Below, one piece after another: positions 16,469 through 58,261 of a stretch of DNA of 64,000 bases. The stretch's first letter is position 1. Each line of letters begins with the position of its first letter. The notes below the pieces were generated by a model. It was not told the DNA's origin. It saw only the letters and a program-made list of their open reading frames with translations, and searched no databases. The position numbers and the translations under genes are program-made. This DNA comes from Candidatus Woesearchaeota archaeon (GTDB lineage Archaea > Nanobdellota > Nanobdellia > Woesearchaeales > UBA583). The stretch lies in assembly GCA_965205335.1 (NCBI GenBank), contig OZ242164.1, forward strand, positions 96,001-160,000. Direction: 5' to 3'.

Positions 16469-16596
16469 GGCACTGTCCGGAAATTCAAGAGAACTTAAAA
16501 TGTTATATAAATAAAGCAATTTTTGATAAATAATTTTTTTCTTTGATTGAATATGGCTAGCATAAATTTTAGAAAAAACAATTTCAGGACAGAGCC
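16469..16596 (+). mobile_element. 128-bp IS5-type MITE (copy A)
   Basis: GGCACTGTCCGGAAATT ... AATTTCAGGACAGAGCC; internally homologous to the 49192 and 51223 copies; no flanking duplication. Confidence 0.9.
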
Positions 16597-41476: not shown

Positions 41477-42061
41477 TTAACTTAGTTTTGAATTTTCAAA
41501 GTCTTCTTTTTTAATTAAAACTTGTTTTAAAACACACTGTGACAATTCGTTTGAACGGGAAAAATCAGAATTTCTTTTTTTATCATAATATGTATATAGT
41601 ATAGTTTTTACGTTTTCACTGTCAATGTCTTTGATTACTGGTACAAAATCACTATCACAAGCAATTAATATTATTTTTTTTATATCAGAGAATTTGTAGG
41701 GTGTTTTTGATAAATCCATAGTTAAATGAGTATCTACACCTTTTTGAGTATATACAAATTTTCTATTCTTTTTCACTCTTTGGACTCTTCCCTCTCTAAT
41801 TGTAATGTTATTTCCAAGAGATAATTTGTGTACAAATTTATCATAGTTCTCTTTCTTTATGCTTTGTTCTCTAGTTGGTTTGCTTGAGATAAATGGAGGG
41901 GCTGTATAGTAAAATATATGTTCAACTTTTAATCTTTCTTTTTTTGCAAAGATTTCTGCTAATCTGAATATGTCATATTTTAAATATTTACCATTTCCAT
42001 AGTGTAAAGCTAATTTTGATAGAAATCCTGCATCAATAAAAATTAGAGTTTTTTCTGACAT
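41477..42061 (-). CDS. NYN-domain ribonuclease (family A)
   Basis: IFIDAGF, FYYTAPP, QKGVDT, IACDSDFVP. Confidence 0.9.
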   Translation of the reverse strand: MSEKTLIFIDAGFLSKLALHYGNGKYLKYDIFRLAEIFAKKERLKVEHIFYYTAPPFISSKPTREQSIKKENYDKFVHKLSLGNNITIREGRVQRVKKNRKFVYTQKGVDTHLTMDLSKTPYKFSDIKKIILIACDSDFVPVIKDIDSENVKTILYTYYDKKRNSDFSRSNELSQCVLKQVLIKKEDFENSKLS

Positions 42062-42098
42062 AGAAATTCAACGTTAGAATTATTTATAAAGTTTTTCA

Positions 42099-42151
42099 GA
42101 AGAGGTGTAGAACTCATCTAGAAACCCCACCTCAAGATCTCTAGGGTGCAT
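42099..42151 (-). ncRNA. Putative pseudoknot small RNA, family A copy 1
   Basis: Lies between its own TATA (42175-42184) and the NYN TATA (42083-42090); conserved with 50037-50090. Confidence 0.6.
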
Positions 42152-42250
42152 GTTAATTATTGTAATAATTCTATATTTATATAGTTTTCTATGTTTTCTT
42201 ACTTTTCTAAACTTTCTATACTGACTTAGGGTGTTAGGTGGATATTTTGC

Positions 42251-51654: not shown

Positions 51655-52678
51655 GGCTCTGTCCATAAATTAATTTTTTTAAAATAAAAGAGATGAAAAT
51701 ACTATTTGATACTAAAACATTATCATTTTTCTTTTGAAAATTATCCAATTTTCATAGAAGAAAATTACATAAGAAAGTTTTTTTCTAATGTTATACCACA
51801 GAATATTCTATGCCATCTCCCTTTTTTTCATAAAATGTATCCTACTTCTGATATTTAGGCCTTGAACTCTCTTGAGGGATGAAAACACACTCTCGACATT
51901 GTTCCTTTTATTGTATATTTCTTTGTTTTTGAAGTATTTTTGTTTGATTTTCCAATGCTTAAAAGCATTATGCTTGGTTTTTGCATAGTCTTTTGGCGGG
52001 AAAATCAAATCTATATCTTTATCATTTAGAAAATCTAAATGATCAAAGGAAAAATATCCTTTGTCTGCCACAATAACACTCTTCTTTATTTTGAGTCTTT
52101 TGAAAAGTTTGTTTGCAACTTTTGAATCATGCTGATTCTTAACCAAGAAAGAATAAGTCAATTATTTGTTTAGAGCCTTGTACGTCACAAATTATATCTA
52201 ATTTGTGCCAAGGTGATTTGGGTTCAAATCCAATCCGATGTTTGTAATAAGTAGTTTTATGGTCTGCATCAATTCCCGAACCATCAATTGCTACAATGTC
52301 TGGATTAGGATTTTCTAAAGAAAGTCTAATTAGGTTGCGGATAAAACTAACTGAGAAGAACTTTAACCACTTATGAAGTGTTGATTTCTTTGGAAGGCGT
52401 TTTAACTGCAACCAATGTTTCCAAATAGTTAAACTGCCGTCTATGTTGCTTACAAACCTTCTAAAGGATTTTCCTGATTGGATGTATAAGACTATTATAG
52501 AAACTCTTTGATAATTGTTAAAGAGTTTGCAACCTCTCACAAAATTGTGAGGCCTTAACCTTAAACTATGACAAAGTTTAAGTACTTCCATATGTAAACT
52601 ATTAGTAAAGTTGGTGTGTTCTAACATAAAAAACTATCAACTTTACACTTTATTAATTCTTCGATTTGAATCAGTGCC
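51655..52678 (-). mobile_element. IS5-family insertion sequence with inactivated DDE transposase
   Basis: AIDGSG, VADKGY, YNKRNNVESVFSSLK; 1-nt insertion at ~52157 and in-frame TAG at 51808; ends GGCTCTGTCC and (internally deleted) TTGAAT-CAGTGCC. Confidence 0.9.
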
Positions 52679-52766: not shown

Positions 52767-53302
52767 GTAAAAAAACTTATTTAGAATTTATTTATTTATT
52801 AAGTGTGTTACTTCAAATTCTTTTAAAAGTTTCTGGGATATGTTTTTTTCAAAATAGCATAATTCTATTTTTTTATTGTTTTCTTTTAGATTCTTAATTA
52901 CTGGGATAAAATCTCCATCACCACTAATTAGAATGAATTTTTCACAAATGTTTTCATAGTTACATTTAAGCATATCAACTGCTAAATTTACATCATCTCC
53001 TTTGATTATATATTGTTCTTTTTCCTCAATTAATCTTTTATGTCTCTTGCATAGGATAATATTGAAATTTTTAATTTTTCTTAATCTTTTAAAAAATTCC
53101 TGTTGTTTTACAAATAAATTTTCAAGACCCTTTAATTTTTTTAGAGAACCATTATAATAAAAGATTTCTACTATAATTTCTTTGTCTCCTATTAAATAAT
53201 TTATATATTTTTCAAAATCAAAACTAATATCAGAATATCTCTTATTTATTGTCCTAACACCATAGAAGAAATTAGCCCCATCTATAAAAAACAAACTTTC
53301 AT
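52767..53302 (-). pseudogene. NYN-domain gene (family B), decayed
   Basis: FIDGANF, KGDDVNLAVD, SGDGDF; ATG at 53302 is out of frame by 1 nt; premature TAA precedes ILNKFFYRE. Confidence 0.8.
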
Positions 53303-53304
53303 TT

Positions 53305-53368
53305 TAAAAACCCATTTGTAAACCAAATGGGATACCTAGCAAGTTTTTTTTAGGAACTCTGAAACCTA
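53305..53368 (-). ncRNA. Putative pseudoknot + hairpin leader RNA, family B copy 1
   Basis: TAGGTTTCAGAGTTCCTAAAAAAAACTTGCT..CCCATTTG-GTTTA-CAAATGGG-TTTTT; TATA at 53390-53397. Confidence 0.6.
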
Positions 53369-53645
53369 CTATAATACTATAATAAGATATTTATAAACAT
53401 ATCTGAAAATTGACTTGACAACAAATGAAGGGAAAAAAAGTTAGAATCTCAATTGAAAAAATTATTTGTCAAAAATTGCTATATTTCTTGAATTTCTGGA
53501 CAAATGTTAGTTATTTTGCCTAATTCAAATAGATACTATTGAGAAAAACTCTTGTAAATGATGCTGTGACTGGAAAGGTCTGTGTAATCTAACACCATAA
53601 TAGTAAAATTTGTAAAAATTCCGAACTTTACGCAAAGTAGTACTA

Positions 53646-53708: not shown

Positions 53709-54326
53709 ATGATTAAACCTGAAGAAAAAATATTTTTGGCATTCTTTGAAAGCAGAGAAGATAAACTTTACTTCAATCAACTTCAAAAATTGACTGGATT
53801 AAGCCCTTCTTCATTAAACAATACAATAAAAAGATTAAAACAAAAAAATATACTTAAAGAAACCAAAACGCAATCAAACACCTTCTATTCAATAAAAGAC
53901 AAAGAAACAAAACATATTGAGTTCTCTAAAATTGCATTAAATAAATTCAATTCCCTAAACTACAAGATTACGTCTCCCCTAAAAGAACTTACAAAACACA
54001 TAAACAACATAAACTCTATAATTCTTTTTGGCTCATCTTCAAGAGGAGAGGAAAGAGAAGAGAGTGACATAGATTTGTTATTTATAATAAACTTATACAA
54101 AAATAAAAAACTACAAGAATCATATGAACAGGAAACTAAGAAAATAATAGAATATGCAAAACAGAAAGCAAGTTTACTGAGCATATATCCAATAAGCATA
54201 TTCATTACAGACGAGAATAATTTTATAAAAGCAAAGAAAGATTATTTAATACAAAGTGCTAAAAATACAGGATATCCGATATTTAACAGGGAACAGTACT
54301 ACAAATTAATTGAGAATGAAAATTGA
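53709..54326 (+). CDS. HTH + minimal nucleotidyltransferase (MNT antitoxin)
   Basis: ILFGSSSRGE..ESDIDLL. Confidence 0.9.
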   Translation: MIKPEEKIFLAFFESREDKLYFNQLQKLTGLSPSSLNNTIKRLKQKNILKETKTQSNTFYSIKDKETKHIEFSKIALNKFNSLNYKITSPLKELTKHINNINSIILFGSSSRGEEREESDIDLLFIINLYKNKKLQESYEQETKKIIEYAKQKASLLSIYPISIFITDENNFIKAKKDYLIQSAKNTGYPIFNREQYYKLIENEN

Positions 54327-54822
54327 AGAACTAATTGAGGATAAAAAGAAGATTGAAGAACTTTATAAGAACTATTTAAACAAAAAACTAATTATAAAAT
54401 CAAAAGATCATAATTTGCTCAAAAAAACTCATATTGAAAAAGCAAAACATAATCTGGGTTTTGCAGAAAAAATACTAAACTTTGAAGACTATAATGACTG
54501 GATAATAATCTCTCTTTACTACACCCTATATCATAGTTTTCTGGCATTAGTTCAAAAAAAAGGTTACTCTTCCAAAAATCACAATGCAACTCTGACATTT
54601 ATCTTAAAACATTACATTGAATTTGAAAAAGCAGAACTTGAACTATTTGTTAACTTAAAAATATCAGAAGAAGACGCAATATTCTATTCAAGATTAAAAG
54701 AATACAGGACAAAAGCAAGTTACTCAACCAATATTAATTTCAAGAATGAAGACGTAAATGAACTAAACAAAAAAGTAAAAAAACTGCTAATTAAAATAAA
54801 TCATATTATTGAAAATGAATAA
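54310..54822 (+). CDS. HEPN-domain protein
   Basis: KAKHNL, SLYYTLYH, SKNH, RTKASY; overlaps the MNT gene. Confidence 0.85.
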   Translation: MRMKIEELIEDKKKIEELYKNYLNKKLIIKSKDHNLLKKTHIEKAKHNLGFAEKILNFEDYNDWIIISLYYTLYHSFLALVQKKGYSSKNHNATLTFILKHYIEFEKAELELFVNLKISEEDAIFYSRLKEYRTKASYSTNINFKNEDVNELNKKVKKLLIKINHIIENE

Positions 54823-54982
54823 ACACATAAATCTGATTCTTCTCTCCCAAAATTCTTTTTAAGTTCTTTACCGTTTGCGAGTACAAAAATAAAGTAGTTT
54901 CTATTGTTTTTCTTTGAATATTGCAGAAAATCTTCAAAAATTAGCGAAAATTATTTAAATACAGATGAATTATTTTATAATT

Positions 54983-56260
54983 ATGCTAATTAGTTTCAAG
55001 GTTAAAAATTTTTTATCAATAAAAGATGAAGTTGAGTTGAGTTTAGACTCTACATCTAGCAAATCTAATCCTAAGAATTTGTTTAAGGCGGGAGGTTATA
55101 CTTTATTAAATTCCTGTGTAATTTATGGTCCTAATGCTTCAGGTAAGTCAAATATTATCAAAGCAATTTTTTTTGTATGGAATTTAGTTAAAAATTCACT
55201 TAATTTTAACGAGGATGTTAGATTATCAGATCCTCCATTTAATTTGAGGCAATTTAAATTAGATAAAAAGATGTCCCAAATGCCAAGTGAGTTTGAAATT
55301 TATTTTATTAAAAATGATATTGAGTACATATATGGTTTTTCCTGTAATGAAACTAAGATAATTAAGGAGTTTCTGAAGTATAAACCAAAAGGAGAAAATT
55401 TTAAAGAAATTTTTGCAAGAGATGAACAATTCAACGAAGAATTCAAATTTACTCATGATAAAAATAAACAAAGGAAAATTGAGGAATTTACAAATAAAAA
55501 CACATTGTATTTGTCAAAATCAACTCAATTTAATTATGAAAAGATAAAACCTGCTTATGATTTTATTGCTAATGATTTAGTTATTAACTATAGCCCTTCT
55601 TGGAGTGATTATACAATGAAAAAAATCCATGAGGATGTCAAATTTAAAGATAAAGTGGTTGATATACTAGAGAGAGCAGATTTTGGAGGAATTGTTGACT
55701 TGAATGTGAAGAAAAAGAAAGGGAAAGTTAGTGGTTTTGAAGTTAAATTTGAAGGCAAGAGCCCGAGCCTTAAGGAGATTGATGAAGAAGGAGATTTTTA
55801 TGATTTAAAAATATCTCACCCAACTAAGGATGGTAAGGTAGAATATTTTGAGATAAATGAAGAATCAATAGGGACCCAGAAAGTATTTAACATGTTAGGA
55901 CCAATCTTTAATATTTTTGAAACTGGAAAAGTTTTAATTATTGATGAATTAGAATCAAGTTTACATCCCAATATTACTCGTTTTTTAGTAAAGTTATTTA
56001 GTAGCAAGTATAACAAGAAGAATGGGCAAATTATATTTACGACACACGACACAACTTTATTGAAAGAAGAGGAATTATTTAGAAGAGACCAGGTTTACAT
56101 TTGTTCTAAAAGACCTAATGAACAAACAGAGTTATATAGTTTAGTTGATTTTAAGTTAAGAGAAGATATGAACTTTGAGAAAGCCTATTTTGGGGGGAGA
56201 GTTGGAGGACTTCCATTTATTGATGAAACTTTTTTTGATGAAAATGACGAGGAGAAATAG
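54983..56260 (+). CDS. RloA/AAA_21 ATPase (copy 2)
   Basis: Near-identical to 14994..16265 except for a central block. Confidence 0.9.
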   Translation: MLISFKVKNFLSIKDEVELSLDSTSSKSNPKNLFKAGGYTLLNSCVIYGPNASGKSNIIKAIFFVWNLVKNSLNFNEDVRLSDPPFNLRQFKLDKKMSQMPSEFEIYFIKNDIEYIYGFSCNETKIIKEFLKYKPKGENFKEIFARDEQFNEEFKFTHDKNKQRKIEEFTNKNTLYLSKSTQFNYEKIKPAYDFIANDLVINYSPSWSDYTMKKIHEDVKFKDKVVDILERADFGGIVDLNVKKKKGKVSGFEVKFEGKSPSLKEIDEEGDFYDLKISHPTKDGKVEYFEINEESIGTQKVFNMLGPIFNIFETGKVLIIDELESSLHPNITRFLVKLFSSKYNKKNGQIIFTTHDTTLLKEEELFRRDQVYICSKRPNEQTELYSLVDFKLREDMNFEKAYFGGRVGGLPFIDETFFDENDEEK

Positions 56261-56471
56261 GAATATTAAAAAATCTACTAGAACTTTATGGATATTTTGT
56301 GAAGGTCATACTGAAGAGAGATATTTTAAGAATTTGAAGTTTAATGAGCGTTTGAGAATCAAATCTAGATTGGCTAGGAGGTCTTCTCCTGATTCAATTG
56401 TTGAAAAAGCAATAAGGTTTTTAGAAAATGGAGGTGAATTTGAGAGCGGAGATTTAATTTGTTGTGTTTAA
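56238..56471 (+). pseudogene. rloB-like gene truncated by a MITE end
   Basis: FCEGHTEERYF..LICCV; the stop falls where the MITE remnant 56470-56506 begins. Confidence 0.85.
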
Positions 56472-56578
56472 CACTTTAAGTTTTCTTGAATTTCCGGACA
56501 GAATCCTAAATCTGAATTCTTTTTAACTCATCAGATCTTTTAAACTTCTGTCCGCAATACCAAATCTAAAAACAAGGC

Positions 56579-56914
56579 TTAACCCTTATATCTAAATTTT
56601 TTATTATATTCCTTGTGATCAATAATTGCAAGAATAAATGCAATAATCTCCACTTCATTTCCCTTTATGGTATAAAGCAGTCTCCAAAAATTTGAAATTT
56701 CAACCCTATATAGATTTTCATATTGTAAATACTCCCTTGGAATCAGATTTTTTCTAATAGGATCTCCAAACTGAGGATTTGTTCTGAGTCTTTCCTTTAC
56801 TTTGTCAATTGATTTTAGAAGTATCCTTGCCTGCTTGTCAGATCTTTTCTTTAATTGAGAATAGTTTTCAATTGCCTCACCAAGCAACCTTACTCTAACT
56901 TCTTTATCAACCAT
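56579..56914 (-). CDS. RelE-like toxin-family protein
   Basis: NPQFGDPI, NLYRVEI..WRLLYTI, IIDHKEY. Confidence 0.7.
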   Translation of the reverse strand: MVDKEVRVRLLGEAIENYSQLKKRSDKQARILLKSIDKVKERLRTNPQFGDPIRKNLIPREYLQYENLYRVEISNFWRLLYTIKGNEVEIIAFILAIIDHKEYNKKFRYKG

Positions 56915-56916
56915 CT

Positions 56917-57186
56917 TTACAATTCAATGCTGTTTTTAATTAACTTATCCATCTCCTTTGGATTTGTATAAATCCATTGAACTCCTTTTGGTCCGTAAAT
57001 TATCTTTCCGCTCTCCCACAAATACTCTAAAATAACCTTCAAAGTCTGATGCATAACTTGTCTTGGGAGAGATTTTCTTATTTCTGACACTTTCATCGGA
57101 ACAGAATTATTCTTTTGCAGAAATTCCTCAACCATAAGCACAGTTCCAAGATTAGGGTATCTGCCTTTCTTGAGCATATTTTCCAT
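56917..57186 (-). CDS. Winged-HTH protein, putative antitoxin
   Basis: Directly upstream of the RelE-like gene; PNLGTVLMVE..LEYLWESGKI. Confidence 0.65.
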   Translation of the reverse strand: MENMLKKGRYPNLGTVLMVEEFLQKNNSVPMKVSEIRKSLPRQVMHQTLKVILEYLWESGKIIYGPKGVQWIYTNPKEMDKLIKNSIEL

Positions 57187-57308: not shown

Positions 57309-57530
57309 TTAATTCTTTATCTTCCAATATCCTCCCCTATCAGGCCCTACCCTTTCAATAATACCTTTCCTTTTCAGTTTATCTAATTGAAATTTAACCC
57401 CATCTTCACTAATTCCTACTAATTGAGATAATTCTCTCCTACTAACTTTAGGATTTTTCATAATCAAAGTAACTATTTTTCTAGTAGTTTTGTGAGTGAT
57501 TTTCTGGGCAGTTTTCTGGGTAGTTTTCAT
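57309..57530 (-). pseudogene. wHTH fragment copy 2, abutting half MITE 57529-57591
   Basis: Duplicate of the 34239-34545 block with fewer TTQK units. Confidence 0.7.
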
Positions 57531-57633
57531 TTGTCAAAAATTACTTTATTTATATAACACTTTAAGTTCTCTTGAATTTCCGGACAGAGCCGAACTAAAG
57601 AAAAGTTTATAAATATCTATATGTTATATATAT

Positions 57634-57700
57634 TAAGTTTCATGGTCACTTGTAAAAAAACCTGCTTCGTATTCCCTCCCTCATTCGTGATGGAGGTTTT
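57634..57700 (+). ncRNA. Putative pseudoknot + hairpin leader RNA, family B copy 2
   Basis: TAAGTTTCATGGTCACTTGTAAAAAAACCTGCT..CCTCCCTCA-TTCG-TGATGGAGG-TTTT; TATA at 57606-57613. Confidence 0.6.
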
Positions 57701-57703
57701 AAA

Positions 57704-58261
57704 ATGAAAGTTCTTGTTTTTATAGATGGTGCTAATTTCTTTTATGGCATAAGAAGTATTAGATCTAAATATAGTGATTTAAATTTTAATTTTGAAAAAT
57801 ATATAAAAAATGAGATTTTAAAAGAAGCAGATGAATTATTGAACGTTTTCTATTACAATGCTCCATTAAAAAACTTAGGTGGAAATAATAATCTGTATGC
57901 TAAACAACAAAGATTTTTTATAAAATTAGAGAAAACAGAAAAGTTCAAAGTAATTTTGTGTAAAAGGCAGAAGAGATTAAATGAAAGAGGAGAAGAGTTT
58001 CACGTAATTAAAGGTGATGACATTCATTTAGCAGTTGATTTAGTTAGATGTTTATATGAAACAGAAGTTGATAAGATAATTTTAATGAGTGGAGATGGGG
58101 ATTTCAAACCTGCAATCAGATTGGCAAAAGAGAAAGATAAAATTGTAAATCTGTGTTATTTTAAAGATAACATTTCTAAGAATATTTATAATATAACAAA
58201 TCAGAAGTATTTAATAGATAAAAGAATTTTAAATAAATATTTTTATAGATGGAAAAAATGA
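57704..58261 (+). CDS. NYN-domain ribonuclease (family B)
   Basis: VFIDGANF, FYYNAP, KGDDIHLAVD, MSGDGDFKP. Confidence 0.9.
   Translation: MKVLVFIDGANFFYGIRSIRSKYSDLNFNFEKYIKNEILKEADELLNVFYYNAPLKNLGGNNNLYAKQQRFFIKLEKTEKFKVILCKRQKRLNERGEEFHVIKGDDIHLAVDLVRCLYETEVDKIILMSGDGDFKPAIRLAKEKDKIVNLCYFKDNISKNIYNITNQKYLIDKRILNKYFYRWKK

Follow-up and report, generated by a model that had tools for sequence, protein, structure and literature searches.

The antitoxins of known type III toxin–antitoxin (TA) systems are repeat arrays that are processed by the toxin. Nucleases may also be controlled through structures in their own transcripts: in Escherichia coli, the mRNAs for RNase III (rnc) and RNase E (rne) are each regulated, through 5′ leader structures, by the enzyme that they encode, and Regnase-1 controls itself through a stem-loop in its own 3′ untranslated region. 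To our knowledge, very few structured cis-regulatory RNAs have been described in archaea, and none in DPANN archaea; neither a leader RNA of an NYN gene nor a structured RNA of DPANN archaea was found in the paper listings and abstracts searched. Here, we describe a conserved structured 5′ leader RNA, represented by about 40 examples in DPANN archaea, that precedes genes for proteins with an NYN nuclease domain. Two of these genes, copy A on the forward strand and copy B on the reverse strand, are located in the window, by which the whole analysed stretch of 64,000 nucleotides is meant (contig OZ242164.1, positions 96,001–160,000, assembly GCA_965205335.1, Candidatus Woesearchaeota archaeon). 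The RNA has a structure that is conserved and covaries, occupies a characteristic position relative to the promoter and the AUG, and is linked almost exclusively to the NYN gene. The NYN leader is new as an RNA family; structured leaders that belong to nuclease genes have precedents.

Architecture and Covariation of the Leader Family

Homologous NYN loci were taken from genome and metagenome collections and from genomes of the same class. About 40 leaders of the same NYN subfamily share the pseudoknot, the linker and the hairpin. Among the 24 inspected loci (at least 38% protein identity), 14 carry the fuller form of the leader, nine a different hairpin leader, and one neither. The fuller form starts with a stem, P1, which is typically AAGGUA/UGCCUU, encloses the loop YCAGGNRN and is followed by AA and a mini-hairpin such as GUC-UUCG-GAC, or sometimes by two of them. 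Next come 4–5 nt complementary to the P1 loop, an invariant GC, a linker ending in GURU(U)CCC, a hairpin (P3) of variable sequence, an AU-rich spacer, and the AUG. The invariant unpaired bases are CA in the loop, GC after the pseudoknot helix, and GURU in the linker. Orthologous genes at 45–50% protein identity are preceded by the same blocks in the same order, in which compensatory changes occur. In the three copies of the source genome (two in the window, and a third, L169, outside it), an A7–A8 tract stands in place of the mini-hairpin, which is retained in an intermediate form (L002, 42 bits) from a genome of the same genus.

The earlier note on this DNA had observed that the hairpins of the two window leaders differ in sequence but keep the same position before the AUG, and this holds for the family: P3 is present in all 38 measured leaders, in roughly ten unrelated sequences, and ends 5–17 nt from the AUG in 37 of them (29 nt in L088). 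A one-base bulge in the 5′ arm is usual (33 of 38 by automatic folding, some of the folds being mis-folds). A run of at least four U follows the hairpin in 23 of the 38 leaders and of at least five U in 11, and an SD-like (Shine–Dalgarno-like) word is found in or after the 3′ arm in five. Thus, the family hairpin is generally not an SD mask, nor does it generally stand before a convincing archaeal stop signal, and the role as a terminator or SD-sequestering element that had been proposed for the window hairpins is not a general one. Pairings that switch between alternatives were seen in single sequences (e.g., in the minimum free energy fold of L091) and were dropped, other subtypes being without them.

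The analysis of covariation was based on 30 leaders aligned (A6) to a covariance model, R1, that describes the 5′ domain. The window copies were misaligned by MAFFT in the 5′ half, and L011 and copy A were out of place in the model alignment; the rows of these two count as gaps and copy B is outside the alignment, so that the figures given here exclude the window copies. The aligned sequences are related, and the shuffle counts are therefore not probabilities. When P1, the mini-hairpin and the pseudoknot are taken together, 87.7% of the cells in A6 are paired, compared to 73.1% in column shuffles, and changes on both sides are found in 10 out of 14 pairs. A covariation score of 0.376 was obtained, versus 0.172 in the shuffles, none of 500 shuffles attaining the former value, and the score falls to 0.077 or less when the partners are slid by 1–3 columns. 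P1 is paired in 89.3% of the cells, with three of its six pairs changing on both sides. The pseudoknot helix is outside model R1, hence the alignment was not fitted to it, and it is paired in 97.2% of the cells versus 37–50% in the slid controls, with all four pairs changing on both sides. Its first pair is G-C in 18 leaders, G.U in seven and A-U in two; the second is G-C in 25 and A-U in two; the third is G-C in 14, U-A in 11 and C-G in one; the fourth is A-U in 23 and G-C in two. When aligned by hand, GGU/ACC of copy A and GAGUU/AACUU of copy B fall into the same register as the family pseudoknot, and the A-U at the second pair of copy B is common to L002 and L169.

The pseudoknot is, thus, a real conserved structure. 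The H-type pseudoknot that had been put forward based on one covarying pair is now borne out by covariation within the family. The recurrent C(UUCG)G loops and the G.U pairs speak for selection on RNA rather than on a DNA palindrome.

Leaders of the Two NYN Copies in the Window

The source genome of the window is a single contig of 1.20 Mb with a G+C content of 30.9%. Its closest protein relatives are labelled Pacearchaeota, Woesearchaeota and Nanoarchaeota, and the source organism is therefore a DPANN archaeon. Among 825 open reading frames (ORFs) of at least 150 aa, 418 are preceded by a TTTA[TA]A[TA] box no more than 80 nt from the ATG; the distance from box to ATG peaks at 29 nt (88 ORFs) and is 27–35 nt in 246 ORFs, in line with the earlier description of most genes as leaderless. 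At the two NYN genes, the distance from the box TTTATAAA to the ATG is 97 nt (copy A, 57704, forward strand) and 95 nt (copy B, 53302, reverse strand), from which leaders of about 66–68 nt follow, and these agree with the about 67 nt noted before. P1 of copy A starts 28 nt past the first base of the box, that is, at the usual ATG distance of leaderless genes, and in the homologue leaders, as read by eye, the TATA box is located 28–29 nt before P1. Based on these spacings, transcripts very probably begin at P1, and the start of the copy A transcript is probably at P1 or adjoining it.

The 3′ end of the 16S rRNA is GGATCACCTCCT, in which the anti-SD is complementary to GGAGG. Upstream of genes other than the leaderless ones, SD words are enriched: in 551 ORFs, GGAGG occurs 24 times at positions −18 to −4 as compared to five times in a control window. 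By this match and this enrichment, the GGAGG of the copy A hairpin can be regarded as a genuine SD, and it is buried in the stem, just as had been claimed.

All of the elements described in the earlier note, namely P1, the A-tract, the complementary loop and tail, the hairpin and the T-tract, are present at their places in both leaders (Table 1). In copy A, the bases next after the ACC strand are TGC; in copy B, C 53331 is the first base of both the family CCC block and the P3 hairpin. By themselves, the two copies carry little weight, amounting to no more than chance plus shared ancestry. Their folding z-scores (−0.40 for copy A and −1.02 for copy B, single-sequence folding) are no better than those of shuffles, and they differ by a single compensatory change (G-C versus A-U). 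It is the comparison with homologues alone that reveals P1, the pseudoknot and the hairpin as selected features.

By inspection, the family blocks P1, pseudoknot, GC..GURU(U)CCC linker and P3 are all found in both window copies. Copy A is the best match in the window to the family covariance models, with 13.9 bits for R1 (E-value, 0.13–1.6) and 12.9 bits for R2, a second model of the NYN leader (E-value, 0.45); these E-values are not significant, and the models include the mini-hairpin (P2), which is absent from the window copies. Copy B gave no match to the models at E ≤ 10. With such weak model scores, the assignment of the window copies to the family rests on the orthology of the genes, the position and the shared blocks, by which the two leaders appear to be reduced members of the conserved NYN leader RNA family.

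Association with NYN Genes and Orphan Copies

Covariance model scans were performed on sets of 151 genomes each. Model R1 had five matches in genomes of the window's order, three of which are the motif; two of these precede an NYN gene, and one (L172) is an orphan. In genomes of another family, R2 had 20 matches in 17 genomes, 19 of which are the motif, and all 19 have an NYN gene or its remnant within about 70 nt downstream. The remnants are truncated at L231 and L234, without ATG at L242, and have IYG in place of IDG at L243. Across the class, four of the five R2 matches are the motif and all four stand before an NYN gene, one of them (L248) being a remnant without ATG. The model matches L173, L175, L246 and L249, which do not resemble the motif, were dropped from the counts, and the best match in the source genome itself (C1:349556, 24 bits), which is without P1 and promoter, was not counted as the motif either. 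A protein-first search found the motif before 10 of 29 NYN loci, namely those with the highest profile scores and one pseudogene. On viral contigs, 39 NYN loci were found, all at 39% identity or less, and none has the motif according to R2 at E ≤ 0.1.

Other NYN subfamilies have different conserved leaders or none. The commonest sister leader consists of AUAUAC and an 11-bp hairpin with a UUCG loop, in which seven of the 11 pairs change on both sides among 10 sequences. Such a distribution, in which each nuclease clade has its own RNA, is as expected for a protein-specific site, and not for a universal metabolite aptamer. The sister-subfamily NYN loci include L010, L014, L015, L094, L095, L097–L100, L190, L191, L194–L196, L206, L208, L211 and L219–L226; at least two further hairpin classes occur among the sister subfamilies, and some of the subfamilies are leaderless.

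The link to the NYN gene has two exceptions. The third genomic copy, L169, also has a GUAUU linker, a hairpin and U4; no NYN gene is located downstream, where a new TATA box is followed by a leaderless ORF of 248 aa. For L169, the choice is between an orphan and a stand-alone small RNA. The other, L172 (G133:C28:4887-4955), is a well-formed orphan leader (33 bits) with the same 25-nt sequence on both flanks, and only distant NYN genes were found in its genome (86% complete). Such orphan copies are more easily explained by a trans-acting RNA than by a cis leader. In addition, intact leaders stand before broken NYN genes at L186, L200, L231, L234, L242, L243, L248 and copy B. The kinds of breakage are stops, frameshifts, a lost start codon, and the replacement of the active-site Asp by Tyr, which suggests frequent inactivation of the NYN nuclease.

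NYN Protein and Genomic Surroundings

The residues D8, D105, D131 and D133 of the copy A protein are invariant in 35 sequences. Its AlphaFold (AF2) model has a predicted local distance difference test (pLDDT) score of 92.8, and the best matches in the PDB are 2qip, a LabA-like protein of unknown function, and the NYN endoribonuclease domain of MARF1, with a template modelling (TM) score of 0.69–0.77 against 2qip. Judging by the residues and the model, copy A is predicted to be a catalytically complete NYN fold. It also matches PADLOC HEC-09, a candidate single-gene defence family (E-value, 2e-14). The protein encoded by copy B is 53% identical to that of copy A, and copy B is probably a pseudogene: one base is missing after ATG AAA GTT, which leads to TAG after six codons from ATG 53302, while an alternative ORF of 168 aa that starts from TTG 53294 is stopped by TAA and has lost the conserved C-terminal IDKKIxNKFFxR block.

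Table 1. Coordinates of the leader elements, NYN genes and defence-related genes of the window, together with the third leader copy of the source genome.
Feature	Position	Strand	Remarks
TATA box TTTATAAA, copy A	57607–57614	+	Promoter of NYN copy A
P1 stem-loop, copy A	57635–57651	+	AAGT 57635–57638 with ACTT 57648–57651
P1 loop TTCATGGTC, copy A	57639–57647	+	9 nt; holds the family YCA motif and the pseudoknot 5′ strand GGT 57644–57646
A7 tract, copy A	57654–57660	+	Pseudoknot loop L3; site of one or two mini-hairpins in relatives
Pseudoknot 3′ strand ACC, copy A	57660–57662	+	Pairs with GGT 57644–57646; conserved GC directly 3′
Single-stranded linker GCTTCGTATTC, copy A	57664–57674	+	Family consensus GC-N3-5-GURU(U)-CCC
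P3 hairpin, copy A	57675–57696	+	CCTCC/GGAGG, 1x1 internal loop, TCA/TGA inner stem, TTCG loop
SD GGAGG, copy A	57692–57696	+	3′ arm of P3; 7 nt before the ATG
T4 run, copy A	57697–57700	+	Between the hairpin and ATG 57704
NYN gene, copy A	57704–58261	+	185 aa, intact; PF01936, E-value 3.1e-16
TATA box TTTATAAA, copy B	53390–53397	−	Promoter of NYN copy B
Pseudoknot domain, copy B	53341–53367	−	P1 AGG 53367–53365 with CCT 53354–53352; loop TTTCAGAGTT
A8 tract, copy B	53351–53344	−	Within the pseudoknot domain
Pseudoknot helix, copy B	53359–53355 with 53345–53341	−	GAGTT with AACTT
Linker GCTAGGTAT, copy B	53340–53332	−	Followed by C 53331
P3 hairpin CCCATTTG/CAAATGGG, copy B	53331–53311	−	Followed by a T5 run, 53310–53306
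NYN gene, copy B	52788–53302	−	ATG 53302; probably a pseudogene
Third genomic copy, L169	C1:72635–72683	−	Outside the window; TATA box, AGG/CCU P1, A8, GAG/CUC pseudoknot
Nucleotidyltransferase and HEPN (MNT/HEPN) pair	53709–54822		
AbiLi-like AAA ATPase	54965–56260		
ParE-like toxin	56579–56914		Small winged-helix partner at 56917–57186

A defence/TA island is located between the two NYN copies (53709–57186), and its genes are included in Table 1. On the other side of copy B, two consecutive ORFs of 162 and 117 aa (51808–52627, reverse strand) adjoin it and have the appearance of a transposase-type gene that has been split; no Pfam match was obtained for the 162-aa ORF. A distant NYN gene of 194 aa (41477–42061, reverse strand) has a TATA box at about 30 nt from the ATG and seems to be leaderless. 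Upstream of it (42095–42190, reverse strand), another TATA box precedes about 75 nt of higher G+C content, which might be transcribed separately as a small RNA.

Close to the copy A promoter, on its upstream side (57561–57592), there is a sequence of about 31 nt that is present in the genome more than 35 times, at 90–100% identity. In the window, it is also found near 16499 (reverse), 34514 (forward), 49289 (forward), 51253 (reverse) and 56474 (forward), and it often has a partial inverted partner about 80–100 nt away, which suggests a dispersed element similar to miniature inverted-repeat transposable elements (MITEs) or repetitive extragenic palindromes (REPs). Farther upstream (57500–57528), a 12-nt unit, TTTTCTGGGCAG, is repeated 2.4 times in the 5′ end of a divergent helix-turn-helix gene (57309–57530, reverse strand).

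Possible Role of the Leader

The reading that we favour, at somewhat less than an even chance, is that of an NYN-specific cis leader that is recognised by its own nuclease. The transcript would start at or next to P1 and would fold into a 5′-terminal H-type pseudoknot, formed between the P1 loop and the 4–5 nt that immediately precede the conserved GC, followed by the GURU(U)CCC linker and, usually, a bulged hairpin. As a cis control element of its own gene, the leader might be bound or cleaved by the encoded nuclease, which would put a feedback limit on NYN production, and in copy A the hairpin may additionally mask the SD. Recognition by the own nuclease is suggested by the gene-specific association of the leader, and the feedback logic is modelled, by analogy, on that of the rnc and rne leaders and the Regnase-1 stem-loop. 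Several observations weigh against this reading: the two leader copies without an NYN gene (L169 and L172), the several intact leaders before broken NYN genes, the weak scores of the window copies with the family models (12.9–13.9 bits for copy A and none at E ≤ 10 for copy B), and the negative result of a search by eye for a conserved alternative pairing that would join the hairpin to the pseudoknot strands or the linker. To these may be added that the island setting, the orphan RNAs, and the broken NYN genes beside intact RNAs are better accommodated by a type III-like TA pair than by feedback, and that the succession of a conserved 5′ domain and a variable hairpin is classic for riboswitches, too.

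A type III-like TA or abortive-infection pair, in which an excess of pseudoknot RNA from the shared promoter would hold the NYN RNase inactive, is the main rival explanation, though an unlikely one. The excess would be produced by a partial stop at the hairpin and U-run, and loss of the labile RNA in infection or stress would free the nuclease. The order of promoter, pseudoknot RNA, hairpin with U-run (at least four U in the 23 leaders mentioned) and nuclease fits this explanation, as do the match to HEC-09 and the island with its AbiLi-like, MNT/HEPN and ParE-like genes. The same is true of the orphan RNAs L169 and L172, each of which has a promoter and a U-run of its own, of the NYN genes that are often broken while the RNA is kept, of up to five NYN-B profile matches in one genome (G419), and of the separate RNA for each NYN clade. 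On the other hand, the leader is not a tandem repeat array, the fold of the putative toxin is unlike that of ToxN, CptN and TenpN, there is no ToxI-type Rfam match, and 15 of 38 leaders have only a short U-run or none. That the locus might represent a new type of archaeal RNA–protein addiction or defence module, with an NYN toxin, a non-repetitive antitoxin and orphan RNAs as stand-alone antidotes, is likewise doubtful.

It is distinctly unlikely that the leader acts without any factor, its paired 5′ end and hairpin shielding the mRNA from 5′-end-dependent decay and throttling translation of a nuclease that may be harmful, in an organism whose translated mRNAs are otherwise leaderless. Such an action would agree with the start of P1 at the expected transcription start, the short distance from the hairpin to the AUG in 37 of 38 leaders, the dominance of leaderless genes in the genome, and the masked SD of copy A, but it leaves unexplained the invariant single-stranded bases, the 5′-arm bulge and the upkeep of the pseudoknot. 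Precisely these invariant unpaired bases (CA in the loop, GC and GURU), along with the compact H-type pseudoknot and the variable hairpin, would be understandable in a small-molecule riboswitch, with the pseudoknot as the aptamer for an unspecified ligand or for preQ1/7-deazaguanine and the hairpin as the expression platform; moreover, UU and UC flank the P1 loop of copy A and its L3 is A-rich, as in the preQ1-I riboswitches described in PMC11625349. We nevertheless consider a riboswitch very unlikely: the leader has no Rfam match, neither the A-rich L3 nor the C preceding the 3′ strand of P1 is a conserved feature of the family, the downstream genes belong to a single family that is neither metabolic nor transport-related, no conserved overlap between aptamer and platform was seen, and other NYN clades have unrelated leaders. 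Finally, the likeness of the two window leaders might be functionless residual identity from a recent gene duplication. The folding z-scores, the pseudogene state of copy B and the weak family-model scores of the window copies speak for such an origin, but the same ordered blocks precede orthologues at 45–50% protein identity with compensatory changes, and the intermediate form L002 from the same genus scores 42 bits, which makes this explanation scarcely credible.

With its covariation-supported pseudoknot, its gene association and about 40 examples, the NYN leader can be curated as a new RNA family. If it turns out that the leader is an antitoxin or senses a ligand, this would be a new mode of control for a defence nuclease.

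Comparison with Known RNAs and Systems

The Rfam 15 search of the whole window gave nothing relevant at the gathering score. The models, including those of preQ1 and ToxI, gave no match at E ≤ 10 in the 301-nt stretches around either leader, and no match at E ≤ 1 was obtained in eight of the fuller homologue loci. The cmscan comparison with the preQ1-I and ToxI models that the earlier note had in view was thus negative for both leaders (E ≤ 10).

The specificity base of preQ1-I riboswitches is a conserved cytosine, which immediately precedes the 3′ strand of P1 as part of UC or AC (PMC11625349). At this place, UC is found in copy A, UU in copy B, AU in L169, and AA, AU, AG or GC in the relatives. 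An A-rich L3, which in preQ1-I is located in the minor groove of P1, is confined (as A7–A8) to the three copies of the source genome, and the other leaders have one or two mini-hairpins there. The downstream gene is never one for queuosine or preQ1 synthesis or transport: it is NYN or its remnant for all 19 motif matches of the R2 scan with 20 matches, and the remaining cases are orphans. The preQ1-I architecture that had been recognised in the window leaders therefore fails at the level of the family, with no Rfam match, neither the specificity C nor the A-rich tail conserved, and NYN as the only associated gene; the identity with preQ1-I was rejected for want of a model match, a conserved specificity C and queuosine genes. 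The speculation that 7-deazaguanine precursors are sensed found no support. What the NYN leader shares with preQ1-I is a small 5′ H-type pseudoknot on an mRNA, with a hairpin or SD element downstream, and, in the window copies, a short P1 whose loop starts with UU, an L3 rich in A, and a tail that takes part in a short second helix. It differs in its L3, which usually has one or two mini-hairpins, in the nuclease gene downstream, and in its archaeal hosts, archaea not being mentioned in the available part of PMC11625349.

With the type III TA systems ToxIN, CptIN and TenpIN, the leader has in common a pseudoknotted RNA directly upstream of an RNase gene, a hairpin or U-run between the RNA and the gene, and the context of a defence island. 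The type III layout proposed previously is retained as far as the order of promoter, pseudoknot, hairpin and nuclease is concerned, but not in respect of the repeat array and the toxin family. Tandem Repeats Finder (TRF) detected no tandem repeat in the leader, and the sole array (57500–57528) is located in the neighbouring gene. The NYN leader is present in a single copy, and the protein has the NYN fold (PF01936) and is not of the ToxN/AbiQ, CptN or TenpN kind.

The resemblance to rnc, rne and Regnase-1 lies in a conserved structure that is part of the nuclease's own mRNA and is specific to the gene family. The sequences and folds are unrelated, the hosts of the described systems are bacterial or eukaryotic, and for the NYN leader feedback is only inferred. 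By profile and by fold, copy A is an ordinary member of the LabA/DUF88-type NYN proteins, as represented by 2qip, the MARF1 NYN domain and HEC-09. For these small proteins, which are widespread and occur in defence islands, the leader provides a first experimental handle, and their own leader is the obvious first candidate RNA.

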